A DNA stretch of 59,527 bases from Methanobacteriota archaeon (GCA_009937025.1 JAACDG010000072.1:1-59527), one strand, 5' to 3'. Counted from the stretch's first letter, positions 6,590 through 57,739 are shown. Made by a program: numbers and translations. The notes: generated from the sequence alone by a model not told the origin.

Positions 6590-6734
6590 AAACTACTCAC
6601 TCTTGCTCAGAAGCGTTGAGAGGTGGAAGTTTTACTGAAGCTGAAGGGTCGATTTCCTCAAGGGCTTCGTGAATTGCTTGAATCCATTCAAAGGCTACGG
6701 CTTCTTCACCACCTGAAGCAAGTAATGATTCATG

Positions 6735-12259: not shown

Positions 12260-12378
12260 ACAAGAAAATAAAAAGCAAGGTTTTGACGATTGTAGAGTAT
12301 TTTTGACCTCAATTTAATGAGATGCTATTACACGGCAGAGGGGCGCGTTCAAATACCCTAAAACCCCGATTGCAATTC

Positions 12379-32457: not shown

Positions 32458-35400
32458 TCAATCTTCGGAGTCAATGAGACCCAGAGGAGTTCCTTCCGGC
32501 CCGCAAAGGCGTATTTCGCCTCTTGAAAACGGACATTGTGAGCATATATCGGCGGATTCTGCCGGCAAACGCGGTGGTTCTTCGAGAGCATCGGGTATTG
32601 CTGCAAGTTGAGCCATCCAATGGAGGTGGGTGCTCAATGTTGTTTTTGCTTCTGCATATTCGTCATCGGTCAATTGAACCATTCGACCTGAGGCTCCAAT
32701 GAGTAACGATGGAGGGAGCACTCGCCGTCGTTCAGATTCTGGCTTTTGTTGCTCGATGGCTTCCAATGCCACTGAATACAACGTCAATTGTAATCGGTGT
32801 TCGTCTAAAATAGCACGTTCTGCTGATGTTGATGGGAACGGTGCGAGGATGTCTCCTTCGAACGTTTGAAGACGACTGCCGGCACTGGAGTTTTCGGGAT
32901 TGAATACATCTCGACATCCTTTGGTTTTCAAATCAACAACTTGCAAGCAACCTTTTCCTTCGTGGTCTCGTAAAGCCAAAACCAAATCAGCACGGCCATC
33001 GAAGACCACATCAACATGGTCGACAAGGGCTTGTGGACGTGGGCCATCAACTGAGAATGATGTTCGGACGACGCCATCGAAAGCAACATTATGACTGAAA
33101 TAAAAGGGCAGTTCTGTCCTTAATCCTTCGACACAATATCCAAAATGGTTTTCTCCCTTGGCAAATCGACCAAGAAGTCCTTTTCGAACTAGAGTCCCTA
33201 AATGAGCTAAACGTTCAAAGGTCGCTGCAAAGAGTTCGGGGTTTGATTCTCCTTCCGTAATGCCTTCCTCTGCCAATACTCGTCGTATTGTTTTTTCATC
33301 ATCGAGTAGGTCTTTGCCATCATACGTCCATGCTGCAGGTAGTGGCGTTACTGGTGGGGTGTTCATTTGTGAAGGATTTTGTAAACCAATTTCGACCAAT
33401 CGGTGCATAAGTGTTCCAAAGACGGTCGCAGGCGGGTACAGTGAGGCAGGTGTTTGGCCTGTAGCCGGGTTTGAGAACCTGTTCAAAGGTTCTGGATTCC
33501 AACCTCTAACCTCTGACAGCCAATGTCTGCGGGGGCATGCGAAACTCGTATCCAATCCGTGTGAAGTCATCCGCATAATATCACTCACCTGCAAAAATTG
33601 AGCAGGTAGATTTTCTTCCGATGAAATCTTTTCAAGTTGTGCTTCAAGACTGTTCCATTTTTGCAGAGGGGTTTGGACATCAAGGTCTGGAAAACAAGCC
33701 GGAGAATGGTAAAGGTGAATCGATTCAATGGCATCCCCTCCAAGGTATGAATTCTGAATCAACGCGGCTGGATTCAAGGAAAGTTCTGCTTCTTCATACC
33801 GTTTGAGAGGTTCCCCGCAAACATCACCATCGAGAAGCCATGGAGAATCCACTTGACCGTTAGAATGAGAAAGGCTTCTCAATCCATCCAGCCACATTGA
33901 GCCCATTGTCTTCATCGATGGTTTACTCTTCAATTCAAGGTGGTGTGTTTTTGGGTCAATAAGTGCTGTATTATTTGGTGAGCCAACGACAATCAATCGG
34001 TTTTCTACCCGCGTCAATGCAACATAAAATTCTCTTCGCCGTTCGGCTTGACGTTGAGCATGGTCCATGCGTTTGGCGAATTCCCATAGTCCATCATCCG
34101 GCCTTTCTCGAGAGGTCCAAGGATTGATTCGGCCGGCAACAACTTGGGGTGTGACCAATACATTGTTTCGTGCGGCAAGAGATGCATCTGATTTACCTGC
34201 ATGGAATATTCCTGCTACGATTACGACAGGTGCTTGAAGGCCTTTTGCTCCGTGAATAGTCATAATTTGAACAGCCCCACCCGACGGTGTCGTGATTGCT
34301 GATGGACCCTTATTTCCAAGGCCGTTCAAGGCCTTCATTCGGTGGAAAATAGCCGATGCCTCATGACCTAACTCACTTCCAATCGTAGCAGCGAGTGAAC
34401 ACCACGCCTCAGCGTTTTGGCGAGAAGTATCGTCAGGATAAGCGACAAGTAAATCCGAACAATCTAAAACAGTATCAAAGACGTCGTGTATGGCTCCTTG
34501 GTGGACCAAATATTCCATGTGTGCTACCAGTCTTTTCACTGAATCATTCGGCGCATGTTGTTGTATCTTCTGCCACCAAGAGCCTTCTGCGGTTGAGGTG
34601 AGTAATGCATGGGCTTGAGCATCGTTAAAACCAAGAATTGACGAGCGAGCAAGTGATAAAGCGGCATGGCGGGAATGTGGGAAAGCGATCAATTCCAAGC
34701 ACGCAAGAAGTGGGGCGGCAACGGGCCGTTGAAGCAAAGCTCCTTGGCGGTCCGCCATAACAGGTATTCCTCGAGACTGTAATCTTTGAATCAAATCAGG
34801 CATATGCTTCCGTGAATGAACAAGAATGATGATGTCTTCTGGACGAATGTTTTCTTTCTTTGAATCGACCTTTGAATAGGCGAGTTTCTCAGCGTTCCAA
34901 ACTTGAGTTTCTCTGTTTTGAATGAGGGCTTGTAAACGCGCTGCAATCAATTCATGTTCGAGGTGTGCGCTTTTGGCCTTCGGGTCGGCAAAGGTATCTA
35001 TTCGCTTTTGAAGGTCGAACCCTGGTGCTTCAACGCCAATTTGAAGTGGAAGAAGCCATTCGAGAGTGCCTGTATTTGACGAATTTCTGGCTGACCGAAG
35101 TTGTTGGGGTTCTGCGTGCCAATCCCCTGGTAAGACATAATGTCTTGAATCGAAGACGTCGTCGAACATCCCGTTCATTGTTCGAACCAAATTGTGGAGG
35201 GTTCGGTGGTTTGAAGTCAGGTCGATATGGCCAAGTAAGCGACGCTCCCGACGAATTGTGTCTACGGGAGTGAACGTATCTTCATCGTCTTCAAATGCAA
35301 CACTCACGTGTTCCCATAATTTGGATTTGACAATACTTCCATCAATTTCATCGCCCCTGATGAACGATTCGCCTGCACCAACAGGACGAGGGTCTCGTGC

Positions 35401-37413: not shown

Positions 37414-40400
37414 TGTTCATCACCTCCAAGAGATGCCGATGGGCAAATTTGTCGTACTGAACAATATGAGCAATGTTTGCCCGGGGTAGCGTTGACATGA
37501 CCTTGACGAGCGGTTTCAATGGCTCTACCTGCTGTTCGGATTCGTTCCGAAATCCAAGAACGGAAGCCATTATGCGATGAAAAGTCCTCACCTGGCAAGC
37601 GGTGATGGGTTTGAGTATAGGTCGTCCTCTCTCCAAGTTGACAACCTTCGAGATACTTGAGGATGGATTCATCGAGTTCGACATAGTGAGTTGTCGATTC
37701 TCCGATCTCAGTGACGCCAACGCCAACTACGCGGTCTCCTGGGTGGCTCTTTTCCCATGCTCGAGCATACAACCCAAGTTGTACTTCATCAAACAAACTT
37801 TTGCGGTGTCGATTGCCTTTATCGGATGCTTTCGGACCGTTAACGGTTTTCAAATCACGAATAATTACCAATCGATTTGCTGGTTGTGCTTTTTCAAAAT
37901 GATGTGGAAGCACTTCAGATGCCGCAGTCTTCGCTAATATGCCGTCTGCTCTGGCTTGAATTTGCTGTTCTTGACTGAGAAGAATTGCATCTACTCGGTC
38001 AACGCGGCCTGATAAATTGATTTGAATGGGTTTCCCTTCATCGTCTTTGCCAGCGACTTGAACATGTCTGGACTTACCTTCACTCAACATCCATTCACAA
38101 GCCAAAGGCGCAGATGCCTTCAATTCGAAATCCGCCGAAACCATTCGCCCAAGACGCCCGCTCGGTTCAAGGTCAATCTCACCTTCAAGGTGCATTCGCC
38201 ACTCATTGGGCGTCACGCCAAGCATTTCTCTGCATCGATGTACGGCAACTGCATCGTTACGCGCCAACCAAGGAACTTCACTTCCAAGATATGACAACAC
38301 ACTGCCCCAAAGTTCAGGGATACTTTTCATTGGACCTTGATGAAGAGGAAGGGGGATTTCGACAGCATCAGCTGCTGTGATGACGCCGTGAGCATTCAAC
38401 ATGGCCGCTTCGGCATCGTGAATCATCGTACCTCTCGCTCGGGAATCCACATCTTCGCTTTGGACATCTTCTGGTTCGGCTTTCAATTGCTTATCCATCC
38501 AAGCCATACGTGGGCATTTAAGCCAAGACTGAAGACGGCTTTGGGACCAAGCATCTCGTTTCATTCCTGTTGATTTGAAGCCAAATGTGGCATTCAAAAC
38601 AGAACTTTTCAAATTTAACGCGGGAAGTGGTCGGGGGTCTATGGCTGGACCTTTGAATTTGGAATTGCGTTTCAAACCGAGATGTGGCCAATTTTCTTGC
38701 TGCCTTGAACCGATATTCACTTGTGATGCAGAAGGTTGTAGGACAAGGTCATCGGCACTTACCAAGTGTTCTCGATTATCCCACGTGAAATATTCACCGT
38801 TCTCCAAATCTCTCATCATCGGTTGACGTAGGCTACGGTCGGTTTGAATTTGGATTTCATGAGCCATTGCTAAGGAAGTTGAAGAAAGAACTGAACCACT
38901 CGGTGTATTTCCTTCAAGTAATTCAAGGCCGAGACGTTGACGTTCGTCTCTTCCTCGATGGCCTGCACGGTCCCCAATTGTTCTCCCACCAATCATAGCC
39001 ATGGTGAAGGGCCTTGGAGTAAGCCAAACGAAACCCCCGCCGTGTTCATCTTTCGTCCAATGCCATGTTCGGTGTCGTTGCCCTTCTTGGTGTTCAGAAT
39101 CAGAAAGAAAAGATGGTGCGGGTTGGAATGATGCTAAAGAGCCGTCATGTCGGGTTTCGGTTAACCATTCAGCAAGAGGTGCGCTTGGACCACCACCTTC
39201 CTCCGCACTTGTATCGAAGAAAATGACTTCATGTGCAGCGTTTAACAGATGTCGTAGATGATGTCTCCCTCGCCGAACTGCAAGGTCTGAATTGTAGAGA
39301 CCAAGTTGGATTTGGGCTGGTGCATCAAGCCATGGAACTTTGGAAGTTTTCATCGACCATGAGTTCACATCTAAACCGACCAAGAGTATCAAATCGGCTT
39401 CGACACCGTGTGCTTGCTCAGGTGTAAGAATTTGGATATCTTTACCCCGTGAACGAGAACGAGGCAAGGAGGTTTGGGCAACAAGGCGGTCAAAATAATC
39501 AATGAAAGGTTGGCCCCTTTCAGGAAGTGTATATCCTGCTTTTTCTAGTAAAATCTTAGTTGCTTCATGCGATTCGCGGATGATTTGTAATCCTGCTAGC
39601 GAACGGTCATGCTTTGCAGTTCGGTTGGACAGTTCAATCCAATCGATATGCCCATACATTTGATCAAGCCATTCGACGCCTGAATCTGGTCGAGACGGGA
39701 GAGGGAGGGGGTGTTCCGTTGAACAACCAACTGGATTTGATGGGAGGCGAGAAAGCGTTTCTTGGTCCAACAATGGCGTCCATATTTCCGCTATACAATG
39801 TAACCACCATTGGGTCTCTTCCAATGCCTGGCGAGCACGTTCTATATTCTCACCAAGTTGTGGAGTTGCTTGGGCAAGTGTTCCAAGCCAGCGCAAAAGT
39901 GAGCCGTGGCCCCCCCGTACGTGAAATGAACGAGCTATGTTTTCTAGAATATTCGAATGGGGACGGGGCTTCCATAATGGTTCAGAAGGATGTGAAAGGT
40001 GTTCGACCGCCCCGTTTTCTAAGGGTAAACTTTGGTATTCATACAAGGAACGGAGCCGATGAAGGGACCATGCATCCATGCCATTTCCAAGTTTCATCGC
40101 ACGAGCCAAACCGGCAACTGCAGGTATTTCATCCAACCTTTTCTGTTCATTCCCACATTGATAGCCAAGTGATTCGAGTCGAGAATGCCATTGGTCTTGC
40201 TTTGTATCAGCAGCCCCATCGATGATGAGCACACGACCACCTTGGCTATTGAGCCCGTAGGAGCGAAGTAATTCAATGGCCGCTTCCATCGAATGTGCCC
40301 CTCGTTCCAACGTGATTCTATGCAGTGAAGTGTTTCTCTGCTTGCCCCGACGTGAATACCAATGGATTTCATTCGGTGGCGCCCAGACGTCATGGGGAGG

Positions 40401-41171
40401 TACCCAGTCCGGCAAATTCTCAGAAGTGGAATACTCCCATTCTGCGTCAAACAAGTAGGCTCCGTGGTGTCCGAGACGGAAGGAACCTGCAGAGCATACT
40501 TGATGAATGGGGCGCTTTTTAGAAAGTTCGGCAAAAAAACTACGCTCGCTTTCCGAGTAATCCGGGGCTGAATCAAGAACAAGAATTCCTCGAACATCAT
40601 TGAGAGTAAATGGGCACTCTGAACTCGCTTTTAACGCGTCAATTACTCGAGCGAAGGCATGATGTGGATGGGTGCCACCTAACTTCTCTTCAAGTTCACA
40701 AAGGAGTGTGTCGAATTCCTTTGCCCCGGGGTCTCCATCCCATGACCATGGGTTGTTCAATTGATGCAAAGTTCGATGCAAAGAGAGTATTCTTTCTGTG
40801 TGGTAAGGAGACCACTTGCTCCCTTCAATAGCAGAAAACAAGAGTGGTAACTCGCAGTTTTCAGCTGCACGTTTGGTGTGAGCGTGAATAACAGCAAAGA
40901 TATCCGCATCACTCCCAAACAACGGTGGAAGACCGAGATCGAGTATAAGCAACTGAAGCAGCCTCACTGTCGTCAAATGATGTGTTGTATCGACCGAAGA
41001 ATTGGATTGAGACAGACGGAGTAAGGTTTGGTTCCGGCTTGCTTCATTCGGGTGAAGTACCAAGATATCGTCGGCAACTCCGTTGACAAGAGATTCAAAA
41101 AACCAAGGCGGTAAGTTGTCTCCGGCATCAATCGCTTCAAGCGTGATTGATACTGCCTTTCCATCCCCCAT
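37410..41171 (-). CDS. addB: AddB-like subunit: degenerate helicase-like N-terminal region plus C-terminal RecB/Cas4-type nuclease with 4-Cys cluster signature (1253 aa)
   Basis: No Walker A seen. C-terminus has WLKCPRMAW, IIRDLKT, QLGLYARAW and CSYCSVRQIC, matching the AddB/Cas4 C-x(n)-CxxCx5C iron-sulfur pattern. Confidence 0.75.
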   Translation of the reverse strand: MGDGKAVSITLEAIDAGDNLPPWFFESLVNGVADDILVLHPNEASRNQTLLRLSQSNSSVDTTHHLTTVRLLQLLILDLGLPPLFGSDADIFAVIHAHTKRAAENCELPLLFSAIEGSKWSPYHTERILSLHRTLHQLNNPWSWDGDPGAKEFDTLLCELEEKLGGTHPHHAFARVIDALKASSECPFTLNDVRGILVLDSAPDYSESERSFFAELSKKRPIHQVCSAGSFRLGHHGAYLFDAEWEYSTSENLPDWVPPHDVWAPPNEIHWYSRRGKQRNTSLHRITLERGAHSMEAAIELLRSYGLNSQGGRVLIIDGAADTKQDQWHSRLESLGYQCGNEQKRLDEIPAVAGLARAMKLGNGMDAWSLHRLRSLYEYQSLPLENGAVEHLSHPSEPLWKPRPHSNILENIARSFHVRGGHGSLLRWLGTLAQATPQLGENIERARQALEETQWWLHCIAEIWTPLLDQETLSRLPSNPVGCSTEHPLPLPSRPDSGVEWLDQMYGHIDWIELSNRTAKHDRSLAGLQIIRESHEATKILLEKAGYTLPERGQPFIDYFDRLVAQTSLPRSRSRGKDIQILTPEQAHGVEADLILLVGLDVNSWSMKTSKVPWLDAPAQIQLGLYNSDLAVRRGRHHLRHLLNAAHEVIFFDTSAEEGGGPSAPLAEWLTETRHDGSLASFQPAPSFLSDSEHQEGQRHRTWHWTKDEHGGGFVWLTPRPFTMAMIGGRTIGDRAGHRGRDERQRLGLELLEGNTPSGSVLSSTSLAMAHEIQIQTDRSLRQPMMRDLENGEYFTWDNREHLVSADDLVLQPSASQVNIGSRQQENWPHLGLKRNSKFKGPAIDPRPLPALNLKSSVLNATFGFKSTGMKRDAWSQSRLQSWLKCPRMAWMDKQLKAEPEDVQSEDVDSRARGTMIHDAEAAMLNAHGVITAADAVEIPLPLHQGPMKSIPELWGSVLSYLGSEVPWLARNDAVAVHRCREMLGVTPNEWRMHLEGEIDLEPSGRLGRMVSADFELKASAPLACEWMLSEGKSRHVQVAGKDDEGKPIQINLSGRVDRVDAILLSQEQQIQARADGILAKTAASEVLPHHFEKAQPANRLVIIRDLKTVNGPKASDKGNRHRKSLFDEVQLGLYARAWEKSHPGDRVVGVGVTEIGESTTHYVELDESILKYLEGCQLGERTTYTQTHHRLPGEDFSSHNGFRSWISERIRTAGRAIETARQGHVNATPGKHCSYCSVRQICPSASLGGDEQ

Positions 41172-47129: not shown

Positions 47130-47546
47130 TTAGAGTAATTTCAATTCGCCGGTGATATGCTCAAGTTCTGATTCTGTAGCGGGACCGAGTGCCAAAACAG
47201 TAAGTGACCCGCTTGGAATTTGAGTGTGCCCCGCATCACGAACAATCGTTGTCGGAATTCCAGCTGCTTTCGCTTGCTTTTCAAGAGCGAGGAGGTGTTC
47301 AGCGTCCTGTCCTTTGAGGCAGACTTTCTTTTGCCCAGTGGCCAACCATTGTTCAAGATGCAATGGTTTCTCTGCTCCTGCCTTCATTGTAGCCATAACG
47401 GCTCCATGTCCGACTTGTGCTGCTATCTTGCCTTTGCCCATCTTCAATCCCTGATTGACTATGCCGACCATTTTACAAGGGCCTAACGGGCGCTCTCCTG
47501 AAAGAACTGGTGCGGTAATTCGATGCAAAAAAGAACGGAAACCCAT
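47130..47546 (-). CDS. pth2: Peptidyl-tRNA hydrolase, archaeal/eukaryotic Pth2 type (copy A)
   Basis: MVGIVNQGLKMGKGKIAAQVGHGAV ... VRDAGHTQIPSGSLTVLALGP. The conserved domain begins at the internal ATG 47471, so the 25-aa N-terminal extension is uncertain. Confidence 0.85.
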   Translation of the reverse strand: MGFRSFLHRITAPVLSGERPLGPCKMVGIVNQGLKMGKGKIAAQVGHGAVMATMKAGAEKPLHLEQWLATGQKKVCLKGQDAEHLLALEKQAKAAGIPTTIVRDAGHTQIPSGSLTVLALGPATESELEHITGELKLL

Positions 47547-47554: not shown

Positions 47555-47929
47555 CTAATACGGTTTCAATTCTGAAACAAGAGCATCAATTGCTCGCCGA
47601 GGTGCAGGGCCAATACCGAGCACTGTTATCGTTCCAGGAGGTACTTCTGTATGAGCTGCATCTTTCACCAGATAAGTGACAAGACCTGCAACTTGAGCCT
47701 GCCCGGCAAGACGTTGTAATGTTGCCAAATCATCTGCACGAAGGCATATTTTTCGAGCACCAGCGTTTCGCCAACGTTCAACAAGACGTGCATGTGTTTT
47801 TCGAGCATTCATTGTGCAAGATACCGCAGCATGAGAACATTGAACTGCAAGTTTCCCTGCAGACATTTTCAAATCATGGCGGGCGATAAAAACCATCGAG
47901 GGCTCATCAACCGTCGATACCATGGCCAT
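47555..47929 (-). CDS. pth2: Peptidyl-tRNA hydrolase Pth2 paralogue (copy B)
   Basis: MVFIARHDLKMSAGKLAVQCSHAAV ... VKDAAHTEVPPGTITVLGIGP aligns along its length with copy A (roughly 40 percent identity by eye). TAG stop. Confidence 0.8.
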   Translation of the reverse strand: MAMVSTVDEPSMVFIARHDLKMSAGKLAVQCSHAAVSCTMNARKTHARLVERWRNAGARKICLRADDLATLQRLAGQAQVAGLVTYLVKDAAHTEVPPGTITVLGIGPAPRRAIDALVSELKPY

Positions 47930-47948: not shown

Positions 47949-48566
47949 TTATTCAAGCGTTGGTTCTTCTTGAAGCAAACCAGAGAACCAGCTGCCCATC
48001 CAAACGACAAAGACGAAGTTACCTACCATGTGAAGGAAGTCAAACGGTAATCCATGAACCAAATACGTGATGAATTCAGTAATGCCAATTGTACCATCAA
48101 GGATAGAGAACGAGACGACCAAATCAAACCAAAATGCTGCAACGAGGGAGGCGATACACGCTCTTCGGAGATTCAAGCCTGAAGATGTCACAAGGGACAA
48201 ACGGGAGCCTGCAAAAGCAATACTCGCCCATCCTGCTGCTTGGAAAAGCGTCCACCAACCGTCGCCGATGAAGAAATTCGAAATCATAGCAACGAGTACT
48301 GCAAAGGCTGCACCACGTCGAGCACCGAGTTGGGCACCGACCAAGAGTGCGGCCACGGTAACCGGTTGCACATTGGGGAGCGGTTGCATGACGACTCGAA
48401 GTAAAGAGACTGAGAGAACAAGACTCATCAGGAATAAAGAATCAAAAATTGGACGCTTGGTTGGCTTGGCCAAGAGCCAAAAAGCACAACCCAACAAAAC
48501 GACGTCCATGAGCAGAGCCGCAAGGGGTGAAAGAGCGGGACCGTGTACGCCCATTGCTTGGAACAT
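47949..48566 (-). CDS. Integral membrane protein, ECF-transporter S-component-like (5-6 TM)
   Basis: Hydrophobic throughout; LPNVQPVTVAALLVGAQLGARRGAAF resembles the S-component pattern. The track start at 48578 is TTG; ATG at 48566. Confidence 0.45.
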   Translation of the reverse strand: MFQAMGVHGPALSPLAALLMDVVLLGCAFWLLAKPTKRPIFDSLFLMSLVLSVSLLRVVMQPLPNVQPVTVAALLVGAQLGARRGAAFAVLVAMISNFFIGDGWWTLFQAAGWASIAFAGSRLSLVTSSGLNLRRACIASLVAAFWFDLVVSFSILDGTIGITEFITYLVHGLPFDFLHMVGNFVFVVWMGSWFSGLLQEEPTLE

Positions 48567-48607: not shown

Positions 48608-50350
48608 TTATACAGGAGACCAACGGACTATTGAGGCTGATTCAATTTTTGATTGGTCAGAAGAAACGACGCCTTTAGAGCCATCGACAGCAAATACCCA
48701 GCCTTCTGCTTCAACCCCATCAATCGAGTCGACATACATGCCGAGTTCTGTTGATGAACTGGAAAGTTCAAAGCCGAACTCGTTACAAGCCGCTTGAGTC
48801 AAAGAAAAGACCGTTTCATGGCCCACGAAGCCTCCAAGAACGTGTTCTTCGCCATCGATTTCAATAATTACGATTTGTGTACCTAGCCATGTATCTGGCC
48901 ATTGTTCATTCCATTCTTCAGAAGCCGAAGTCTCAGGGAATTTTTCATCAAATGTTTGAGACCATTGTGTCGATAAATCCGGGACGATAAGTACGCATAG
49001 AATGAGAATGAATAAACTGAACATTCTAACAAACCATTCTTTTTTGCCATTCAAAAGAGACACTGTGGATGAACCAAGCAAGAGATACATGACAAAAACA
49101 AGGCCTTGTACACTCGAACTAAATTCATGATTCGGAGACGATTCATGATTTGGAGACGATTGATTATTTGGAGGTGATTCATTATTCGGGGGCAATTCAT
49201 TTGTAGCATCTTCGCTGTAAACTCGAAGTACTCCGTGGTCATTTCCAAATGCGGTAAACAACACGCCCCCAACAATATACTGGAGCGGTGCTGCGGTACC
49301 ATAACCTTGAATGCCAACATCAAGAGATTGGACGGTGAGGTTTTCTCGCCCATCGAAAGTGAAAAGGCCCCATGTTGAATCAAATGTATTCGATGGTGCG
49401 TATATCATTCCATTTTCATACCATCCTATTTCCCCATTGGTGTGAAAGGGAACTTCGTCAAGAATTTCACATTCAGTTGAACAGATGAAGATTCGAACCG
49501 CGGAGGAGTCGCCGGTCAGAACATAATCTCCTTGCAAACTCGGAAGAGCGGGCGATGGGCCTGTCGGAAACTGCTGCAGGACATGCCCATCATTCGGTTC
49601 AACAATGGCGATGAGGCCGCTTGAATCTTGTTGAGCATGAAGAAAAATTCCGGCATCGGTGAGCAAAGGCGCATGACGGATTTTCCCAAGTTGGAGGTCA
49701 TATGAAGTCGCCATACCTGTACGATTTACATGCCAAAGTTGGCCTGATTCATCACCGATGAAATATCCTGTGTCGTCAACAGCAACCCCATTCCTCCAAC
49801 CAAGTCCGGTTTCAGTCCACCATTGTTGTTGACCATCTGCAAGACAATATTGACCAATTCCTTGGCGCGTTGGAACAATGACAAATTCGCCATCGAGAGC
49901 GAGTTGGCCGGTCACGCCCCATCCAATAACTTCGGTTTGTATCGACCAAAGTACTTCACCATTCGAAGGGTTGAGTGCTTCAATCACTCCATTGGTCCAC
50001 CCGACTAATATCATCTCAGGCCACATTCCACATTCACCTTCACCGGGTTGGACAAGAAGCAATGGCGACATGTCATTATTAGTTGAAGCGGGGTTCAAAC
50101 GTTGCCATGTTTTGTTTCCATTTGTATCAAATGCGGTAACTGCTGGTTCGCTGTTTCCGGATGTACGAACAACAATTTGCTCGTCAGCGAACAAAGGTGA
50201 AGTCGAAATATAGCCTGTTTCAAAGTCATATTCCCAAGCGAGAGCATGAGAATCATTCCAGGGGTTTGTCGTTTCTTGAGCAAGAAGTGTTGGCACAAGA
50301 AGAAGGCTGATGAACAGCAACGCCATCAAGCGTCGAAACACTTTGATCAC
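48608..50350 (-). CDS. Secreted PQQ/BamB-like beta-propeller protein with two TM helices and C-terminal DUF4430-like (transcobalamin-beta-like) domain
   Basis: Signal MIKVFRRLMALLFISLLLVPTLLAQE; repeated G.xxW motifs (NGEVLWS, DGQQQWW). C-terminus GMYVDSIDGVEAEGWVFAVDGSKGVVSSDQSKIESASIVRWSPV fits DUF4430. The GTG start overlaps the gatE stop (GTGA). Confidence 0.65.
   Translation of the reverse strand: MIKVFRRLMALLFISLLLVPTLLAQETTNPWNDSHALAWEYDFETGYISTSPLFADEQIVVRTSGNSEPAVTAFDTNGNKTWQRLNPASTNNDMSPLLLVQPGEGECGMWPEMILVGWTNGVIEALNPSNGEVLWSIQTEVIGWGVTGQLALDGEFVIVPTRQGIGQYCLADGQQQWWTETGLGWRNGVAVDDTGYFIGDESGQLWHVNRTGMATSYDLQLGKIRHAPLLTDAGIFLHAQQDSSGLIAIVEPNDGHVLQQFPTGPSPALPSLQGDYVLTGDSSAVRIFICSTECEILDEVPFHTNGEIGWYENGMIYAPSNTFDSTWGLFTFDGRENLTVQSLDVGIQGYGTAAPLQYIVGGVLFTAFGNDHGVLRVYSEDATNELPPNNESPPNNQSSPNHESSPNHEFSSSVQGLVFVMYLLLGSSTVSLLNGKKEWFVRMFSLFILILCVLIVPDLSTQWSQTFDEKFPETSASEEWNEQWPDTWLGTQIVIIEIDGEEHVLGGFVGHETVFSLTQAACNEFGFELSSSSTELGMYVDSIDGVEAEGWVFAVDGSKGVVSSDQSKIESASIVRWSPV
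49123..49194. repeat. Imperfect 18-nt tandem repeat x4 in the propeller-to-TM linker
   Basis: attcatgattcggagacg / attcatgatttggagacg / attgattatttggaggtg / attcattattcgggggca. It encodes PPNNES-PPNNQS-SPNHES-SPNHEF on the minus strand. Confidence 0.75.
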
Positions 50351-52377
50351 TCCGATATTTTCTGAATGGCTTCTCGAAGAAGAGCGCTGACCACTTTGCC
50401 ATCCGCCGCCCCTACCGCTTGCATAACAACGCCCATCAAAGGACCCATTGCGCCCATGCCCCGCTCTTTGACAAAGTCCGCTCGCTCAGCAACGATGCTT
50501 TCGATGACTGCACCTAAATCACCTTCATCTGCTGGCTTGAAGCCATGTGCTTCACCGTATTCGGCAATCTCTTCACTGCTTGGAGTCATATCTTTGAAAT
50601 GCTCAATGATTTCATTCATAGATTCGCGAGTGATGAAACCGGCTTCCTTCACCGCCATGACATCAGCACAAAGTTCAGGATTTGCTGTATCGTTTTCGAG
50701 CACGACACTGGCCCATCCTTTGTGTGGTAATTGGGAAGCGTATTCAACAAAGATATCGTCCAATTCCCTCGCCAATAATTGGCTTGCTTGGTCATTCGAA
50801 ACTTCATACTCAGACATACGTTCAGCTCTTTGGTCATCGGTCATCGGTATCGATTGGAGCGTCTGTTGCCATCGCTCATCACTGAGGGCGAATACGGGAA
50901 CATCGGTTTCAGGATACATACGAGCGCCACCGGGCAAAGGACGCATGGGTGTAGTTGTTCCATCATCAGGAGCGCCTTTCTTAATCACGACATTTCGAAC
51001 TTCTTGCGGTATTCGGTGCCAAGCCAAACGGGCTCGAGTGAGTACGCTTTCAAGTGCTAACTCTGCCTGCCAAAGTGGTGCTAAACACAGGATGAAACCG
51101 TCATCCACTCCAAGGTCGAGGAGGTTTCGAACGGCTTTGACATGTTCTGCTTCGATACCATAGGCGGGCAATTCATCAGAATGGAAGACGCCTTTGACAC
51201 CTGCTAATTTTGCAGCGCCTGCCAATTCACGACCAAGTCGTGGCATTTGTGCCCCTTCCTTATCTGAAGTTTTTTGTCCGAACTTTCCAGCAAGCCCGGG
51301 AAGTGGGAGTGCCAACATGATTGAGCCTTGCTTCAAACCGGTTTGGACCATTTTTGAATCGCATGAAGTGAAGCATTCGCTGACATCATTCAACGCAAGT
51401 GGAAGGTGTTTTTCGACCGCTTGTGAAACCTGTTGTTCGAGGGGTGCCTCATCGCTTCTTCGGTCAGGTGGGAGAAGCGGTAAGGATAATTGAGTTCGCA
51501 ATTCATTCGCAAGTCTGTAGAAGTGCAATTGGCGAGCCATTTCAAGACGGATAATACGAGGAATCCAAGATAAATCTTGGCAACCTTTGATTTCAACACG
51601 GTCTCCACAAGCCAAAGAAACATTGAGGTCTTGTCGAATGCTACCAAGGCCTCTGCGAACTTTTCGGGTTTGACGCAAACATCGGCCGAGTGCCATCGAG
51701 GTTTCTTTGGCGTGTTCAGGCGTGAGAACATCGGGTGCAGTCGCAATTTCAATCAATGGTAAACCCAATCTGTCTAAATTGTAGAGGACCTGTTCACCAT
51801 CTCCCGTTGAGATGGTGTCGAGTTTACGAGCACTGTCTTCTTCAAGGCACAAAACATCAACTCCAACTGGGCCGGTTTCTGTTTGAAGAACGCCGTCAAC
51901 TGAAACCAAAGACGTGCGCTGGAAGCCGCTTGTGTTTGAACCATCAACCACGGTCTTTCTCATCGTTTGAAGAAGAGAAACTGGTTTTGCATTGAGTAAT
52001 GCTGAGACGGTTAAAGCGATCGACACTGCTTCACCATCGTGAGGCAGAGGAGGTTGTTCATCCAATTCAATCAAACCAGAGTTTGGTGATTGAACATAGA
52101 CAAATGAACGGTTGCGGCGTGTTTCAAAGCGTGCAGCGATATCGATTGCTCCGCCTTCACCTCGTGCAGCCCTCAAACGACGATGAAAACGATTCCATTG
52201 TTCAGGAACCGTGTCGATTGTAACATCGTAAAGTACGCCTGGTTGGCGCGAATGAAGTTTTCCTGTTGCCAGTTGTTGATGAACCTCAATGCCGCACATA
52301 AAGCCCAATTCGCTAGGGACAAGCCCGCTCGCGTCATCGACACTACCTATTGGCTCAGTGCGAATTGGGTCGGCCAT
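50347..52377 (-). CDS. gatE: Glutamyl-tRNA(Gln) amidotransferase subunit E
   Basis: FMCGIEVHQQL, the inserted AspRS-like region and a C-terminal YqeY/GatB-like tail. The track start at 52404 is TTG; first ATG is 52377 (MADPIRTEP). Confidence 0.9.
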   Translation of the reverse strand: MADPIRTEPIGSVDDASGLVPSELGFMCGIEVHQQLATGKLHSRQPGVLYDVTIDTVPEQWNRFHRRLRAARGEGGAIDIAARFETRRNRSFVYVQSPNSGLIELDEQPPLPHDGEAVSIALTVSALLNAKPVSLLQTMRKTVVDGSNTSGFQRTSLVSVDGVLQTETGPVGVDVLCLEEDSARKLDTISTGDGEQVLYNLDRLGLPLIEIATAPDVLTPEHAKETSMALGRCLRQTRKVRRGLGSIRQDLNVSLACGDRVEIKGCQDLSWIPRIIRLEMARQLHFYRLANELRTQLSLPLLPPDRRSDEAPLEQQVSQAVEKHLPLALNDVSECFTSCDSKMVQTGLKQGSIMLALPLPGLAGKFGQKTSDKEGAQMPRLGRELAGAAKLAGVKGVFHSDELPAYGIEAEHVKAVRNLLDLGVDDGFILCLAPLWQAELALESVLTRARLAWHRIPQEVRNVVIKKGAPDDGTTTPMRPLPGGARMYPETDVPVFALSDERWQQTLQSIPMTDDQRAERMSEYEVSNDQASQLLARELDDIFVEYASQLPHKGWASVVLENDTANPELCADVMAVKEAGFITRESMNEIIEHFKDMTPSSEEIAEYGEAHGFKPADEGDLGAVIESIVAERADFVKERGMGAMGPLMGVVMQAVGAADGKVVSALLREAIQKISE

Positions 52378-52453
52378 ATTATGGCGGAGTCGTTCATCCT
52401 TCAAGACTACAACCCTTCACTCTCAAGAAACTGTTGAGAATCTGAGGGTGACT

Positions 52454-53698
52454 TCACTCAATTCGAGTTCGGCCAACAAATGTTGCAGCTGAGAGTATGC
52501 CGAATAATGTCAGAGCGACACCTATACTTGGAAGAAGTGAATCTTCTATCGGCACTGGGTCAGAGACCGCCTCAAGGGATTCTTCACAAAGTATCCAATG
52601 GCCATCAGTACCTGGTTCGACTGAACCAGTTAAACCTCCGCCCTCTGAAAGGTATAGAGTGCCAGAACCAGCTGGCCATTCAACGACGTAATTACCTGGG
52701 TAATTGATTTGTGTAGCGTCCCAAACTGGCATTCCATTTACATTCCAAGTCTCTTTACAAGGACAAGAATATGGAGTCCAAAATTCATAGTCTTGGTCTT
52801 CGCCTGGTGCGGTTGCAATCAAACCATTTGAATCGACGTATGTCGCTTGGTAATACATGCCCGAGTTCACTGGATATTCGTAAATATCACCAACAGAAAC
52901 CAAAGTTGTAGAATTCCAAACGCCCGATGTAGTAATTCCTTCACAAGGCCCTGGGTTTACCCCATTTCCATTACAAAGGACCCAGTGATTATCAACGCCT
53001 GGTTCTCCAGCGCCTGTGGTCACTCCTAATGGTTCCAAAGGCATATACAAATTACCAGAACCTGCAGGATGTTCAACAACATAGTTTCCTGGATAAGCAG
53101 TACCAGCAACCCACACAGGTTCTCCATTTGCCGCCCAAGTTTCCTTACATGGGCAAGAATAAGGCACCCAGAATTCATCTGCACTGCCGTCTTCAACAGG
53201 GTTTGCAACCCAGTCCGGTCCACCATTTGCATCCTCATGAGTGAAGATGATCTGGTAATAAGTACCTGAATTTGCAGGATATTCGTAAATGTCCCCAACT
53301 GCTCCTGAAGTTGTGTTATCCCAAACTGATACATTTAGACCAGCACAAGGGTTTCCTGAAGGCTGGTTTGGTTCTTCTCCATTACAAAGAACCCAGTGAT
53401 TATCAACGCCTGGTTCTCCAGCGCCTGTGGTCACTCCTAATGATTCCAAAGGTATGTACAAATTACCAGAACCTGCAGGATGTTCGACTACATAGTTTCC
53501 GGGATAAGCAGTACCAGCAACCCACACAGGTTGTCCATTTGCCGCCCAAGTTTCCTTACATGGACAGTCAATCGGAGACCAAACATCCATATCGATGTCT
53601 GGAGCACTTACGCTCCAGAAAGGACCTCCTGCATTGACTTGGTAATACGTTCCTGAATTGACAGGATATTCGTAGACTTCACCGGATGTGACATTCAT
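52454..53698 (-). CDS. C-terminal portion of a repetitive cell-surface protein (CBM5/12-like modules, C-terminal TM anchor); no signal peptide of its own
   Basis: Repeated CPCKETWAANG.PVWVAGTAYPGNYVVEHPAGSGNLY and VW.xTT..xGDIYEYPxNSGxYYQ modules. Anchor LLPSIGVALTLFGILSAATFV. Same frame as the upstream ORF across a single TAG. Confidence 0.7.
   Translation of the reverse strand: MNVTSGEVYEYPVNSGTYYQVNAGGPFWSVSAPDIDMDVWSPIDCPCKETWAANGQPVWVAGTAYPGNYVVEHPAGSGNLYIPLESLGVTTGAGEPGVDNHWVLCNGEEPNQPSGNPCAGLNVSVWDNTTSGAVGDIYEYPANSGTYYQIIFTHEDANGGPDWVANPVEDGSADEFWVPYSCPCKETWAANGEPVWVAGTAYPGNYVVEHPAGSGNLYMPLEPLGVTTGAGEPGVDNHWVLCNGNGVNPGPCEGITTSGVWNSTTLVSVGDIYEYPVNSGMYYQATYVDSNGLIATAPGEDQDYEFWTPYSCPCKETWNVNGMPVWDATQINYPGNYVVEWPAGSGTLYLSEGGGLTGSVEPGTDGHWILCEESLEAVSDPVPIEDSLLPSIGVALTLFGILSAATFVGRTRIE
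52968..53155. repeat. Internal direct repeat copy A (~188 nt, ~95 percent identical to 53379..53566)
   Basis: Hand alignment at an offset of 411 nt (137 codons) gives about 9 mismatches in ~188 nt. Confidence 0.8.
53379..53566. repeat. Internal direct repeat copy B
   Basis: See copy A. Both encode ...NHWVLCNG... / CPCKETWAANG.PVWVAGTAYPGNYVVEHPAGSGNLY. Confidence 0.8.
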
Positions 53699-53779
53699 TG
53701 AGGAGTCCCAAACACCAACAACCGTGAGGCCCGCACATTCAGTGCCATTGGCCGGTTCATCTGGTGAACTGCAGAGTTC

Positions 53780-53782
53780 CTA
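53780..53782 (-). other. In-frame amber (TAG) codon at a conserved Trp position, joining ORFs 53780..55432 and 52454..53698
   Basis: 53782 minus 53698 = 84 nt = 28 codons, so the frame is the same. The context reads DPE-TAG-ELC, against W-x-x-C in six paralogous linkers. Confidence 0.85.
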
Positions 53783-55432
53783 TTCTGGATCTGTACCTGG
53801 TTCGTCTCCAGGGCCTGGTGCAGGCGAAGTGATATACAGCATCGAAGAGCCAGCAGGCCATTCAACGACAGAGTTAGGAGAATACGTTACTGAAGCATCC
53901 CAGACTGGACTGCCAGCAGCCACCCATTCTTCTTCACATGGGCAATCAACTGGAGCCCAAATATCCAAATTAGTAGTAGGGGAGTCGACATTTTGGTCGA
54001 GATATCCTTGAATTATAACTTCGTAATAATTTCCTGAGTTGGCTGGGTATTCGTAAACTTCACCGGTTGAAACTCGGGATAAATTGTCCCATACGCCTAC
54101 TGAGGCTGAACTGCCACATGGGCCGCCGCCTGCAGGTTCTCCTCCACCACAAAGTTCCCATTCATTGCCATCGGCAAAGGGTTGGGTTGGTGTTACGCCT
54201 GTTGTTGTTTGGCTAACAATCGCCATCCAGATGTCTCCGGTTCCAATTGGATACTCGACCATCATTCCAACATCGTAAACTGTGTTTGAATCCCATACTG
54301 GGCTACCAGCTGTCAACCAAATGTCATCACAATCACAGTACTTTTCTGACCATGCATCAAGATCCATTCCTGGCTCACCAACGATTTGGTTGTTGATTCC
54401 GGGAGAGACAGTATAGAAGTGTCCAGACCCGGTTGGGAATTCATAAATTTCTCCTGCAGATACAAGAGTTGTGTTATACCAGGGCATGCCTCCATAGCCG
54501 TTGAATTCCTCACATGGGCCACCGCTTGGCTCCTCACTAGGACAAAGTCTCCATTTATCGGTCTGATTTGGGGCATCGACGGGATAAGCGACCCAAGCAA
54601 TGTAGAGTGTGCCAGAGCCGGCTGGCCATTCAACAACTGAATTTGATGGGTAGGTCGCAGTAGAATCCCATACTGGCTCTCCACTATCGCTCCAGATATC
54701 CATACAATCACAATACTCTTCATCCCAAGCATCCAAATCGACACCAGGCTCTCCTACTGTTTGATTACTGATGGAAGGAGCCACCATGTAGAAATTGCTC
54801 GAATCTGCTGGATACTCGTAGATGTCCCCTTCGGAAACTAGCACTGTACTATCCCATACAGTAATGACCATTCCAATCAATTCATCACAAGGTGTTGAAT
54901 CTTCATGTGTACACTGAACCCAAAGGTCATTGCCTACAACTGGTTCATCTCCAGCCATGGTTCCAGCGTCTTGTGCAATCCAAGCACTACCGTTGTGAAG
55001 GACGATTCGCCACGCTTCATAAGGAACGGTAGCATCCCAACTAATGCCACTTGCTTCAGCAATTTCCAAACACGAGCAAGGGCCTATCCAATGGCCTTCT
55101 TCTACGGAACCACCAGATGAATTAATTTGAGTTTGGTAAAATTGGCCTGAGTTTGCTGGCCATTCAACAATGTCATCGACTGCATACGTGGCGCTGCTAT
55201 CCCATAGAGGTCCACCCATTCCGTCGCTAATTCCATTGAAAGAACAATCTGAATCAACGGAATTATTTCCATTCATCCCATTGCTTGCATTGCCTTGCCG
55301 CCCTGAAAATTTCACATTTTGTTCGCTATTATCTTCATAACCATTGTTTTTTTCTTCAAACGTATCCATTCCTGCAAGCGATACCTGTAAAGTAAGTAAA
55401 GCCACAATTATCAAACATATTGCATTCCGCAT
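53780..55432 (-). CDS. N-terminal portion of the repetitive cell-surface protein (signal peptide plus CBM5/12-like modules); lacks an anchor
   Basis: Signal MRNAICLIIVALLTLQVSLAG. Modules such as PVWDSTATYPSNSVVEWPAGSGTLYIAW match the chitin-binding type 3 / CBM5_12 pattern W..x..Y..G..V.[YW].G..Y. Confidence 0.75.
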   Translation of the reverse strand: MRNAICLIIVALLTLQVSLAGMDTFEEKNNGYEDNSEQNVKFSGRQGNASNGMNGNNSVDSDCSFNGISDGMGGPLWDSSATYAVDDIVEWPANSGQFYQTQINSSGGSVEEGHWIGPCSCLEIAEASGISWDATVPYEAWRIVLHNGSAWIAQDAGTMAGDEPVVGNDLWVQCTHEDSTPCDELIGMVITVWDSTVLVSEGDIYEYPADSSNFYMVAPSISNQTVGEPGVDLDAWDEEYCDCMDIWSDSGEPVWDSTATYPSNSVVEWPAGSGTLYIAWVAYPVDAPNQTDKWRLCPSEEPSGGPCEEFNGYGGMPWYNTTLVSAGEIYEFPTGSGHFYTVSPGINNQIVGEPGMDLDAWSEKYCDCDDIWLTAGSPVWDSNTVYDVGMMVEYPIGTGDIWMAIVSQTTTGVTPTQPFADGNEWELCGGGEPAGGGPCGSSASVGVWDNLSRVSTGEVYEYPANSGNYYEVIIQGYLDQNVDSPTTNLDIWAPVDCPCEEEWVAAGSPVWDASVTYSPNSVVEWPAGSSMLYITSPAPGPGDEPGTDPE

Positions 55433-55453
55433 ACCTTCTACTCACCATGCAGG

Positions 55454-55463: not shown

Positions 55464-55485
55464 TTCTTCATTGACTCATATATCC

Positions 55486-55549: not shown

Positions 55550-57739
55550 TCAAGCAATTTGCAATGTATCATAGCCTGAAGGTCGAAGCATTCGGCCGTG
55601 TTGGCAGAGCTTTTCAATGACATCTTCTGCAGTTGAACGGTTAATGTCGTAACGTTCTGCTTCGTTGAATACATCCAAGAGTTGGGCTATGCCGCCGTTG
55701 TTTGCAGACAAAGATGCGACGATTTCCATAATGGCTTTCTCTCGATTACGGACGGACCCTTTCTTGCCGGTGACAAGCGTTGTTTCATCGAAATTACCAC
55801 CCATCAAGTCTTCTCGCCAAAGACGAGTCATCAGAACTGCCCGTTCTGCATCTTCCAGCGTAGCCACTTGCGAGAGACGGATACGAGCGCTGGCTTCTGC
55901 TAAACGAGCCAAAGCCTCAAGAGAACGTGCGGTGATGGCAACGCTGTCGTTTGAGTCGCCGGTTTGTTTTCGAGTCTCAACATAAAATTTGACGATGATG
56001 TCTCGCGCTTCTTGTTCAAGATGGGGGTGAACTGTTCGCTTGGAATAAGCAATGTATTTTCGGATTAAATCCCGAGAGAGAACTTCGCCATGTTCCGAAG
56101 TGTGTTCTATGCCGGAACGAGATGTGCCCTTGGTTGGGTCAGGGGCGCTGCCTTCACTGACCAATAATTCACTTGTACCCTGCAAACGATTACTGATGAT
56201 GTGTTGTGCAATCTTCGCATCTTTCTCTGTTTCGGGGTCATCGGTTAACAACCCAATGATGTCAAATCGAGAAACCAAAGGAGGGGCGAGATTGATTTGT
56301 GCGGTGAATGGAACTTCTGAAACTGGCTCAAATCGACCGTTTTTCGGATTCGCTGCCGCAAGTACTGCGCAACGGGTACGAAGGCTCGCGTTGATTCCTG
56401 CTTTCGATATCGAAATTGGCTGTTGTTCCATCGCTTCGTGCATACTCGAACGGTCGCCTTCATTCATTTTGTCGAATTCGTCAATAGCCGCGAGTCCAAG
56501 GTCAGCAAGAACCAATGCTCCAGCCTCTAAAGTCCAACGCCCATCAGCAGCAGCATCCTGAACTGCGGCAGCGGTAAGACCTGCGGCCGATGCTGATTGG
56601 CCCGAGGTAAAGCGACCACGAGGAGAAATTGTCGACATGTAACTGAGCAGTTGGGATTTTGCAACACCAGGGTCACCCATGAGCAAAATATGGATGTCGC
56701 CACGGTTTCTTGTGCCGTCGGAATTGAGTCGGGCCACGCCACCAAATAATTGCAACATCAACGATTGCTTGACTGAAGTCATGCCAAAAATCGAAGGGGC
56801 GATGCTGTTGGTAAACAACTCGTAAATATCGGGACGGCGTGCCAACTCTTTGATTTCTAATTCCTCATCTTCGGTAATGACGATTTCCTCAAGAGGGATG
56901 TTTTGTCGCTCAAGTGAATGAATCCGCAAAAATATATCGAAAACTGGGGTGTCTTTTCCACCCTTTCTTTGAGACCGAATAAACAAAACTCCGTTTGCTT
57001 TGACACGGTCTCCTGGGTTGAGTTTACCTGCCAAATCATGTTCAGCGATACAGATGATTCGTTCAGGCTGAATCCCACCCTTCATTTGTTCAGGTAATTC
57101 CTGCAATTCCATAAATTGTGAATTGATGAGGATAGAATCTTTTTGATTCAATTCAAAGCGAGTTTGACGCTTTGCTCGACCGCATCCACCGTCTAATTGC
57201 TGGCATTCGATTGGTTCGATGAGTTCTTGTTCATTTGGTTGATTGACAATCATCGAATGGCCGCAGGCAACACATTCGAACGTCGCAGCATAGATACGGG
57301 GTCGGACGCCTGAAATTTTGGTCGTAACAGCGTCGATTGCAAGCATCATGCCAATGTCATCTGCGCGTAGTTGTGATACGGTTCGGACTTGGTCAACGGG
57401 GAGGTGAACAATGCGAACGAATGGGTACATCGTGCTGTGTCCAGCGTCCAAAAGGAATTGGCGTAAAGCTTGGTTCGAGGCATGGAAATGAAGTTCCGGG
57501 TGTTGAACGATGTCATGGGCAAACTCGTGGTCAAATCCTTCAATAACACGATACGAAACTTCAAGCGATTGTTCATCGGGCCACATCTGAGCAAGGTTGT
57601 GCACCGATTCTGCGAAGTGGTCTTGAATCAAAGAAGTCCAACGAGCAGGGAGGTCGAATTCTTGAAGCATTTTGCGCACCTGATAAACGCGGGAGAGGCT
57701 CCCGACTTCCAAACAATATCGCCAACGGTATTTAGCCAT
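55550..57739 (-). CDS. mcm: MCM replicative helicase
   Basis: Zn-motif region CVACGH...CQQLDGGC, Walker A ILLMGDPGVAKSQLL, Walker B AAIDEFDKM, arginine finger SRFDII, C-terminal winged-helix-like tail. Confidence 0.95.
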   Translation of the reverse strand: MAKYRWRYCLEVGSLSRVYQVRKMLQEFDLPARWTSLIQDHFAESVHNLAQMWPDEQSLEVSYRVIEGFDHEFAHDIVQHPELHFHASNQALRQFLLDAGHSTMYPFVRIVHLPVDQVRTVSQLRADDIGMMLAIDAVTTKISGVRPRIYAATFECVACGHSMIVNQPNEQELIEPIECQQLDGGCGRAKRQTRFELNQKDSILINSQFMELQELPEQMKGGIQPERIICIAEHDLAGKLNPGDRVKANGVLFIRSQRKGGKDTPVFDIFLRIHSLERQNIPLEEIVITEDEELEIKELARRPDIYELFTNSIAPSIFGMTSVKQSLMLQLFGGVARLNSDGTRNRGDIHILLMGDPGVAKSQLLSYMSTISPRGRFTSGQSASAAGLTAAAVQDAAADGRWTLEAGALVLADLGLAAIDEFDKMNEGDRSSMHEAMEQQPISISKAGINASLRTRCAVLAAANPKNGRFEPVSEVPFTAQINLAPPLVSRFDIIGLLTDDPETEKDAKIAQHIISNRLQGTSELLVSEGSAPDPTKGTSRSGIEHTSEHGEVLSRDLIRKYIAYSKRTVHPHLEQEARDIIVKFYVETRKQTGDSNDSVAITARSLEALARLAEASARIRLSQVATLEDAERAVLMTRLWREDLMGGNFDETTLVTGKKGSVRNREKAIMEIVASLSANNGGIAQLLDVFNEAERYDINRSTAEDVIEKLCQHGRMLRPSGYDTLQIA

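Follow-up and report, generated by a model that had tools for sequence, protein, structure and literature searches.

A surface-protein gene split by a private TGG to TAG change at a conserved tryptophan codon in a Poseidoniaceae contig

The stretch of DNA analysed here, which we call the window, is a 59,527-nt contig of Poseidoniaceae (Marine Group II). Translation of its minus strand from 55432 to 52454 gives a frame of 992 codons that a single internal stop interrupts; with its TGA stop, this surface-protein gene occupies 52454..55432. It is flanked on one side by MCM (55550..57739) and on the other by GatE (50347..52404), and the order MCM, surface-protein gene, GatE is identical in the related loci L001, L044 and L045. 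The internal stop is a TAG at codon 551 (53780..53782, minus strand), in the residue context GTDPE-X-ELCSSPDEPANGTE where X is the interrupted codon. It ends an upstream ORF of 550 aa (53780..55432, minus strand) that begins with a typical signal peptide, MRNAICLIIVALLTLQVSLAG. A downstream ORF of 414 aa (52454..53698, minus strand) starts at an internal Met, has an N-terminus that is not hydrophobic, and closes with LPSIGVALTLFGILSAATFVGRTRIE, a transmembrane (TM) helix followed by a basic tail. Between the ORFs lies a bridge of 27 codons (53699..53779, minus strand; residues 552-578) that reads ELCSSPDEPANGTECAGLTVVGVWDSS. The initial annotation had put both ORFs in the same frame across this bridge, and translation agrees; its placement of the signal peptide in the upstream ORF only, and of the TM anchor at the C-terminus of the downstream ORF, can likewise be read from the sequence.

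The intact protein runs from the signal peptide through a repeat array to a C-terminal anchor. The signal peptide (residues 1-21; 55370..55432, minus strand) is a helix at 2-21 in the AlphaFold model, and the N-terminal segment is conserved in homologues. The array (52586..55246, minus strand) has seven units of ~125-137 aa, each closing with a W-x-x-C motif, the Trp positions being 171, 294, 425, (551), 680, 817 and 946; the six paralogous contexts of this motif given in the initial annotation are exactly as listed there. Each unit comprises two small beta modules, predicted to have a CBM5/12-like fold, plus a C-[PD]-C motif. The AlphaFold model (pLDDT 64.6 overall, ~70-85 in the domains) has low-confidence linkers directly after each W-x-x-C; W551 itself is within the strand 551-555 and the linker starts at 556. 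The anchor (residues 966-992; 52457..52537, minus strand) consists of LLPSIG, a hydrophobic helix placed by the model at 970-986, and a basic tail (GRTRIE), and the arrangement of [IL]PSIG, TM helix and basic tail is conserved among homologues.

The modules were compared with carbohydrate-binding domains in both sequence and structure. The Pfam profile CBM_5_12 (PF02839) scored 16.3 bits (E = 0.0099), below its 26.2-bit gathering cut-off, and Foldseek matched the chitin-binding domains of ChiB and ChiC with probability 1.0 and 1.2-1.9 A rmsd over 48-52 residues, at single-domain E values of 0.1-0.4 for a model of medium confidence. With the same medium-confidence query model, the tandem CBM12 of Vibrio COD was matched at E = 5e-4. 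The full protein matched no NCBIfam family at E <= 0.1, including no C-terminal sorting-signal model, and had no match in a PDB sequence search. Repeat number differs among homologues, from 4 to 7 units; lengths of 985-1000 aa are the norm, and the shorter ones, of 579-890 aa, are mostly whole proteins with a smaller number of units. The combination of 4-7 paired CBM5/12-like units with a signal peptide and an [IL]PSIG-TM-basic anchor suggests a putative adhesin of these particle-associated heterotrophs. The intact gene encodes a Poseidoniaceae-wide, syntenic surface protein, plausibly an adhesin for polysaccharides or particles.

Relatives, from near-identical to distant, bear out the proposal of the initial annotation that one surface-protein gene was broken by a TGG to TAG change at a conserved Trp; in all relatives aligned, codon 551 is TGG or the residue is Trp. 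The closest comparison is with scaffold_92 (L044), which is 99.85% identical to the window across 17,074 gap-free bp (range 99.85-99.93%). Inside the surface-protein gene the two differ at only two positions, 53781 and one synonymous site. The change at codon 551 is a G to A transition on the coding strand (C to T at 53781 on the plus strand); the coding-strand base is G in L044, L045, L001 and L032, and the window alone has A. A 992-aa protein from another assembly, P0127, differs from the merged frame solely in having W551, and this agreement at 991 of 992 residues means that the split frame is not a chance one. Proteins P0125 to P0129, of the same 90% cluster, are 992-993 aa long and all have W; the window's own 550-aa product is listed in that cluster as P0123. 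More widely, the aligned column is W in all 95 homologues having a residue there, and at all 43 related loci the gene is free of in-frame stops. A degenerate pattern requiring the TAG had no match in two public collections, genome_contigs and metagenome_contigs, so the window itself is absent from them and they hold no second TAG allele. Exact-product look-ups for the 550-aa ORF, the 414-aa ORF, both Pth2 genes and the 210-aa ORF found none of these recorded. Taken together, TGG in a near-identical assembly, Trp in 95/95 homologues, stops in 0/43 loci and the unmatched pattern establish, by sequence comparison, that the TAG allele at codon 551 is derived and private to the window record; by the same comparison, every relative examined has an intact gene. 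The bridge codons (53699..53779), through which the relatives read without a break, belong to the gene's ordinary coding sequence. One homologue, P0093, is split by a frameshift elsewhere in the gene, in a pilon-polished long-read assembly; this is most likely an assembly error too.

These comparisons also bear on two readings in which the split would be functional. One, offered in the initial annotation, is a two-gene arrangement, with a secreted N-terminal protein and a separately initiated anchored protein, for which the ATG sitting 28 codons past the TAG could serve as a start. That ATG is a commonly conserved internal repeat Met (present in 68 of the 110 homologues aligned) and not a new start, the downstream product would have no signal peptide, the orthologues are all single ORFs, and the Trp lost to the TAG is conserved and the final one of a folded module, placed by the model in strand 551-555. 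We consider such an arrangement scarcely credible. The other is phase-variable ON/OFF switching, suggested in the initial annotation alongside recent mutation, and repetitive surface proteins in bacteria are indeed often phase-variable. Here, there is no homopolymer, short tandem repeat or invertible segment at 53781, only chance repeats of 9-12 nt nearby, and a tandem-repeat search of the surface gene returned only a 2-copy 9-mer at 55279. A point transition is no reversible high-frequency switch, and the OFF allele was found at 0/43 loci, in none of ~95 homologous proteins and in none of the TAG pattern scans. The suggestion of phase variation therefore fell away, and its probability appears vanishingly small.

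Codon 551 is not the only lesion of its kind in the window. A second truncated gene (6597..7367, minus strand), matching no NCBIfam family, corresponds to a 256-aa membrane protein in relatives and has a TAG at codon 211 (6735..6737). The initial annotation had noted an open extension past this TAG; it is real, and six related assemblies have TGG there, with C at position 6736 where the window has T, so that this too is a private TGG to TAG change. A third private nonsense change (47949..47951, minus strand) is GAA to TAA, with loss of the last 10 codons of a DUF6580 gene. Private missense changes include two in the essential gene MCM, T441P within its EQQ[T/S]ISI motif and W496G directly after SRFDII, both of them radical substitutions in conserved motifs. 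Window proteins without private amino-acid changes have exact copies in 4 and 8 other contigs, while those with private changes were never matched exactly. The hexamer GAATGG, common to both TAG sites, occurs in 81 copies in the window, only 2 of them changed, so that a systematic error at this motif is not the cause.

Could UAG be partly decoded, by a tRNA-Trp with a CUA anticodon or as pyrrolysine, so that the full-length protein is still made? In favour of such amber suppression or programmed read-through, both in-frame TAGs of the window fall at Trp codons, two such events being more than a random-substitution model predicts (P ~0.01-0.025, post hoc), and TAG is the rarest stop. The 39 complete called genes of the intact scaffold_92 end in TGA (30), TAA (7) or TAG (2). 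The initial annotation was right on the rarity of TAG; of the four TAG stops that it counted, two (53780 and 6735) are themselves premature, given the two TAG stops of scaffold_92. Against suppression, a genome 99.9% identical has TGG at both in-frame TAG sites, and there are genuine TAG stops elsewhere in the window. Pth2 ends in TAG (47555..47557, minus strand), conserved in L001 and also TAG in scaffold_92; the family profile aligns as far as its position 115 of 117, which falls on residue 122 of 124, the TAG lies two residues past the profile end, and the next gene begins 8 nt downstream. A 796-aa gene likewise ends in TAG, conserved in relatives and abutting a convergent gene. Judged by this conservation, TAG is a true stop elsewhere in the window. 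Moreover, the third private nonsense change is a TAA, and there is a general excess of radical missense changes; suppression explains neither. No tRNA genes occur within the 59.5-kb window, and in literature naming both Poseidoniales and pyrrolysine, the Poseidoniales passages of the top match deal with membrane lipids, not pyrrolysine. A TAG at a Trp codon is a classic false positive in recoding screens, since TGG and CAG are the sole sense codons one transition away from TAG. The read-through option of the initial annotation is not supported, given the conserved Pth2 stop and the TAA, and we regard it as very unlikely.

The TAG is better viewed within the full set of private changes. About 57 substitutions occur only in the window record, roughly one per kb; among 25,496 shared positions the window has 30 singletons and two other near-identical assemblies have 3 and 6, which puts the window on a long private branch. 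The private coding changes comprise ~28 missense, 3 nonsense and 22 synonymous. This differs both from shared natural polymorphisms (10 missense vs 49 synonymous; Fisher P = 1e-5) and from the singletons of the other assemblies (3 missense vs 18 synonymous; Fisher P = 0.003), and the 3 nonsense changes are in line with the 1.5-2.4 expected under a fully random model. Against scaffold_92 the window has 63 differences in 53,636 bp, with transitions to transversions at 32:31 vs 50:19 in the shared polymorphisms (P = 0.012); A:T to C:G accounts for 16 of the 63 and G:C to T:A for 8, and there are no indels in 53.6 kb. Relative to the other assemblies, private nonsense changes and radical missense changes are evidently in excess in the record, and in both coding effects and base spectrum the private substitutions look largely unfiltered by selection. 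Three further observations on this set run counter to an artefact: (i) a phasing-like signature, in which the derived base equals a neighbouring base, is not enriched overall (24/63 vs a 43% null); (ii) the two TGG to TAG changes, and the four hits in TGG codons, somewhat exceed the random model (P ~0.01-0.03, post hoc); and (iii) part of the set looks natural, e.g. a mostly synonymous cluster at 3550..3829.

That the TAG is a non-programmed private substitution of some kind we hold with high confidence. Its most likely origin, given private changes that are apparently unselected, would be an artefact of sequence production, a reading that we favour without being sure of it: template damage, amplification error or low-coverage consensus error may have caused TGG to be read as TAG. 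We infer that the excess of damaging changes would reflect such error and not real mutations in the sampled cell. Two points count against an artefact. Long-read error of the typical kind is ruled out by the absence of indels in 53.6 kb, so that only a process confined to substitutions is left, and ~0.7 errors per kb is more than is usual in a finished Illumina consensus or after single-cell amplification with phi29.

Alternatively, and somewhat doubtfully, the TGG to TAG change may be a genuine, very recent loss of function in the sampled cell or strain. The 550-aa fragment would then be secreted and unanchored, in a lineage that carries many unpurged mutations and may be a mutator whose spectrum is that of oxidative damage (MutT/MutY-like). 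A simple transition suffices for the change, and the 43 TGG codons of the surface gene make a large target; the gene is evolutionarily plastic, with 4 to 7 units among homologues, and surface proteins are frequently lost. Tip branches among close genomes show elevated dN/dS, and defects in 8-oxoG handling raise the A:T to C:G and G:C to T:A classes; both count for real mutation. Yet scaled to a genome of ~2 Mb, the load would reach the order of 100 nonsense codons, along with the radical changes in MCM motifs, which is hard to square with viability in a free-living cell whose population is large, and the other assemblies of this population that were compared, up to six of them, lack every one of the private variants. 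Of the options in the initial annotation, then, recent nonsense mutation and consensus error are the ones left standing, and production error is the one to which we incline. Perhaps, at long odds, the record represents a natural variant with a partly suppressed UAG (e.g. by an anticodon mutant of tRNA-Trp) or a hypermutator lineage with a MutT-like A:T to C:G signature; this idea is kept alive by the two in-frame TAGs, each in place of a Trp codon, and by the four hits in TGG codons.

The value of the case is mainly in quality control. The annotated 550- and 414-aa proteins are halves of one gene and unfit to be treated as separate family members, and because many of the private changes are damaging, analyses of variants, dN/dS or stop recoding that include the window record would be misled. 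A by-product is the description of the intact Poseidoniaceae surface-protein gene.

Comparison with known systems places both the lesion and the protein. Archaeal pyrrolysine or amber recoding, as with the UAG of Methanosarcina methylamine methyltransferase genes, shares with our case an in-frame UAG with conserved coding sequence downstream, but there the UAG is conserved in orthologues and the genome has pylTSBCD, whereas here every relative has TGG. Bacterial surface proteins that vary in phase by repeat slippage or invertible promoters are likewise repetitive, exported and anchored, and resemble the window's protein in the OFF state; the lesion in the window differs in being a point transition, with no slippage tract or invertible element and no ON/OFF polymorphism found. 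The anchor has the layout of PGF-CTERM/archaeosortase anchors, with a short conserved motif ([IL]PSIG), a hydrophobic helix and a basic tail, although its motif differs from PGF and the NCBIfam sorting-signal models gave no match. The beta modules share the pattern W...Y..G..V.Y.G..Y...P....W with the CBM5/12 (ChtBD3) domains of Serratia ChiB, Streptomyces ChiC and Vibrio COD, and the Trp replaced by TAG is the counterpart of the final conserved Trp in such a module; they differ from those domains in their sub-cut-off Pfam score, in being paired with Cys-rich C-[PD]-C connectors within units of ~125 aa, and in the lack of a catalytic domain. The closest parallel for the split itself is with the ordinary split ORFs that sequence error or recent pseudogenisation leaves in draft records of MAGs and SAGs; these are likewise one base away from near-identical intact relatives, form two adjacent same-frame ORFs that the annotation treats as two proteins, and occur in one record only. 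Nothing essential separates our case from these, except that within its 59.5 kb the window also has a TAA and a second TGG to TAG change, a sign of trouble across the whole record.

Across its 992 codons, the surface gene (55432..52454, minus strand) stays in one reading frame that a single TAG interrupts, at codon 551 (53782..53780, minus strand). A signal peptide opens the 550-aa ORF on the upstream side; the 414-aa ORF on the downstream side starts at an internal ATG 28 codons past the TAG and ends in LPSIG followed by a hydrophobic helix and basic tail. Copies of a W-x-x-C motif lie at residues 171, 294, 425, 551, 680, 817 and 946, and a motif scan returned exactly the contexts quoted in the initial annotation, whose description of one frame split by a single TAG, with signal peptide upstream and anchor downstream, is therefore accurate according to translation of the window. 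The gene lies between MCM (55550..57739, minus strand) and GatE (50347..52404), an order kept in related contigs, and its homologues with source names come from Candidatus Poseidoniaceae (Marine Group II archaea).

The TAG had been taken to replace a conserved Trp, and orthologues bear this out. A search with the merged protein, its TAG read as W, found at least 120 homologues, mostly single ORFs of 985-1000 aa, and in a MAFFT alignment the codon-551 column is W in 95 of the 95 that have a residue there. P0123 (source NCBI) is the window's own 550-aa product, and its 90% cluster also includes full-length members. Of its 992 positions, full-length P0127 shares 991 with the merged window protein and departs from it only at W551, and a second full-length homologue, P0125, is 99.8% identical. 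The DNA coding for P0127 is ENA ERZ23498998 scaffold_92 (78,670 bp), which matches the window at 99.85% without gaps over the 17,074 bp stretch with the surface gene; inside the gene, the two differ only at 53781 (TGG vs TAG) and at one synonymous site. Coding-strand G is also found at this position in the related loci L045, L001 and L032, so the window's A is derived. In-frame stops in the surface gene are absent from all 43 related loci, which come from species-representative genomes and metagenomes, and a degenerate pattern demanding TAG between EPGTDPE and ELC had no match in the genome or metagenome contig collections. The TAG is almost certainly a private, derived and non-programmed substitution.

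An AlphaFold2 model of P0001 (94% identical; 32-sequence alignment) has medium confidence, with a mean pLDDT of 64.6 and domain blocks at about 70-85. W551 sits in its beta strand 551-555, and low-confidence linkers start right past each W-x-x-C; by this model, the TAG does not lie in a spacer but costs a folded module its last conserved Trp. In the PDB, Foldseek found tandem CBM12 domains in Vibrio chitin oligosaccharide deacetylase (E = 5e-4) and chitin-binding domains in Streptomyces ChiC and Serratia ChiB (48-52 residues aligned at 1.2-1.9 A), in agreement with a weak, sub-threshold Pfam CBM_5_12 match; sequence searches gave no PDB match and no NCBIfam family. A signal peptide and an [IL]PSIG-TM-basic tail are common to all homologues, whose repeat units number 4 to 7, and the protein is probably anchored and glycan-binding. 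We note two peculiar homologues: (i) A full-length copy occurs in a contig labelled 'Flavobacteriales bacterium CPC84' (NYSX01000075.1), which is probably mis-binned. (ii) A homologue at 1959..4911 of L056, a 765 kb contig of a pilon-polished long-read assembly, is broken into overlapping 360-aa and 636-aa calls; the split implies a frameshift, probably an assembly indel, and its position and synteny differ from those in the window.

The initial annotation had also allowed for a phase-variable on/off state of the protein. The surroundings of 53781 lack the homopolymers, short tandem repeats and inverted-repeat pairs that serve phase variation, and no TAG allele turned up in the collections searched; a switch is contradicted, and we give it practically no credence. 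Nor does a secreted fragment accompanied by a re-initiated, anchored one fare better: at 53698, the ATG encodes a Met within the repeat that 68 of 110 aligned homologues share, and single ORFs prevail among homologues, which contradicts a functional two-gene split and makes it just as implausible.

The TAG is one of many changes private to the window record. Scaffold_92 covers window positions 1-15,599, 20,799-41,761 and 42,454-59,527, and differs at 63 of 53,636 positions, with zero indels. Within the 25,496 positions common to three near-identical assemblies, the window has 30 singletons and the other two 3 and 6; its changes are substitution-only, at about 0.7-1.1 per kb. Another TAG with an open extension, pointed out earlier at 6735, proved to be a second private TGG-to-TAG change (6735..6737, minus strand; changed base 6736), which cuts short, at codon 211, a gene for a membrane protein (6597..7367, minus strand; no NCBIfam family found) that runs to 256 aa in six other assemblies. 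GAA precedes the TAG at both sites. A private GAA-to-TAA (47949..47951, minus strand; changed base 47951) costs a DUF6580 gene its last 10 codons, which overlap the Pth2 start in relatives.

Tallied over the three regions, the private changes are missense in about 28 cases, nonsense in 3, synonymous in 22 and intergenic in 3, compared with 10 missense vs 49 synonymous among same-population polymorphisms common to at least two assemblies (Fisher P = 1e-5) and 3 vs 18 among singletons of the other assemblies (P = 0.003). Random substitutions simulated on the gene models at the observed base spectrum were 70% missense, 25.5% synonymous and 4.2% nonsense; about 40-57 unselected hits would give three nonsense changes. 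Transitions and transversions stand at 32:31 for the window differences vs 50:19 for shared polymorphisms (P = 0.012), and A:T to C:G accounts for 16 of the 63 differences from scaffold_92. In MCM, an essential protein, private missense changes hit strongly conserved positions: T441P falls inside the motif EQQ[T/S]ISI(S/A)KAGI, and W496G directly past SRFDII (SRFD is the arginine-finger motif); all relatives and solved MCMs have T/S at 441 and a hydrophobic residue at 496. These radical changes to the replicative helicase map to 56419 and 56254. Exact-protein look-ups retrieved window proteins free of private amino-acid changes from 4 and 8 other contigs, and none of those carrying such changes. 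Six private changes, four of them synonymous, cluster within 280 bp at 3550..3829 (gene 3406..4404, minus strand), a pattern more like natural variation or a small patch of recombination than random error.

Suppression or read-through of UAG had been proposed as well. The 39 complete called genes of scaffold_92 stop at TGA (30), TAA (7) or TAG (2), and both TAG-ended genes also end in TAG in the window and in L001 (95.6% identical). One is Pth2 (47555..47929), where the match to the equivalog profile reaches position 115 out of 117 and stops two residues short of the TAG, with the following gene beginning 8 nt downstream; the other is a 796-aa gene (43638..) that adjoins a convergent one. In this lineage, TAG is thus decoded as a stop, and suppression is very unlikely. 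It keeps its slight weight only because both in-frame TAGs stand in place of Trp and TGG codons were hit four times (3000, 6736, 53781 and 56254; two to TAG, two to GGG) among about 57 private coding changes, for which a random model gives P of about 0.01-0.03, post hoc. The window holds no tRNA genes, and in the top-ranked of six papers co-mentioning Poseidoniales and pyrrolysine, the Poseidoniales passages concern membrane lipids, not pyrrolysine.

Because the private excess is near-random in coding effect, including three nonsense changes in 54 kb and the radical MCM changes, we moderately favor an artefact of sequence production as the origin of the TAG. Template damage or amplification error may have been fixed from very few templates; alternatively, a low-coverage consensus could be responsible. 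A real, very recent mutation in a mutation-loaded or mutator cell is possible but appreciably less probable, and would yield a secreted, unanchored 550-aa fragment with loss of the anchored protein. Most likely, then, the split gene is no biological feature but an ordinary disruption in a draft record; its practical value is as a caution on the window record and, for recoding screens, on TAGs that stand in frame at Trp codons.

Other genes of the window deserve mention. The adjoining genes 47555..47929 and 47130..47546 (minus strand), in different frames, both match the Pth2 (archaeal peptidyl-tRNA hydrolase) family, an arrangement kept in relatives. A giant ORF (12322..20676, plus strand; 2784 aa here and, by the gene call, 2765 aa in the relative) is unbroken despite the substitution load. 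Two very large genes at 32458..41171 (minus strand; 1651 and 1253 aa) have UvrD-helicase and PD-(D/E)XK nuclease domains, a layout resembling that of the AddAB helicase-nuclease, here in an archaeon.
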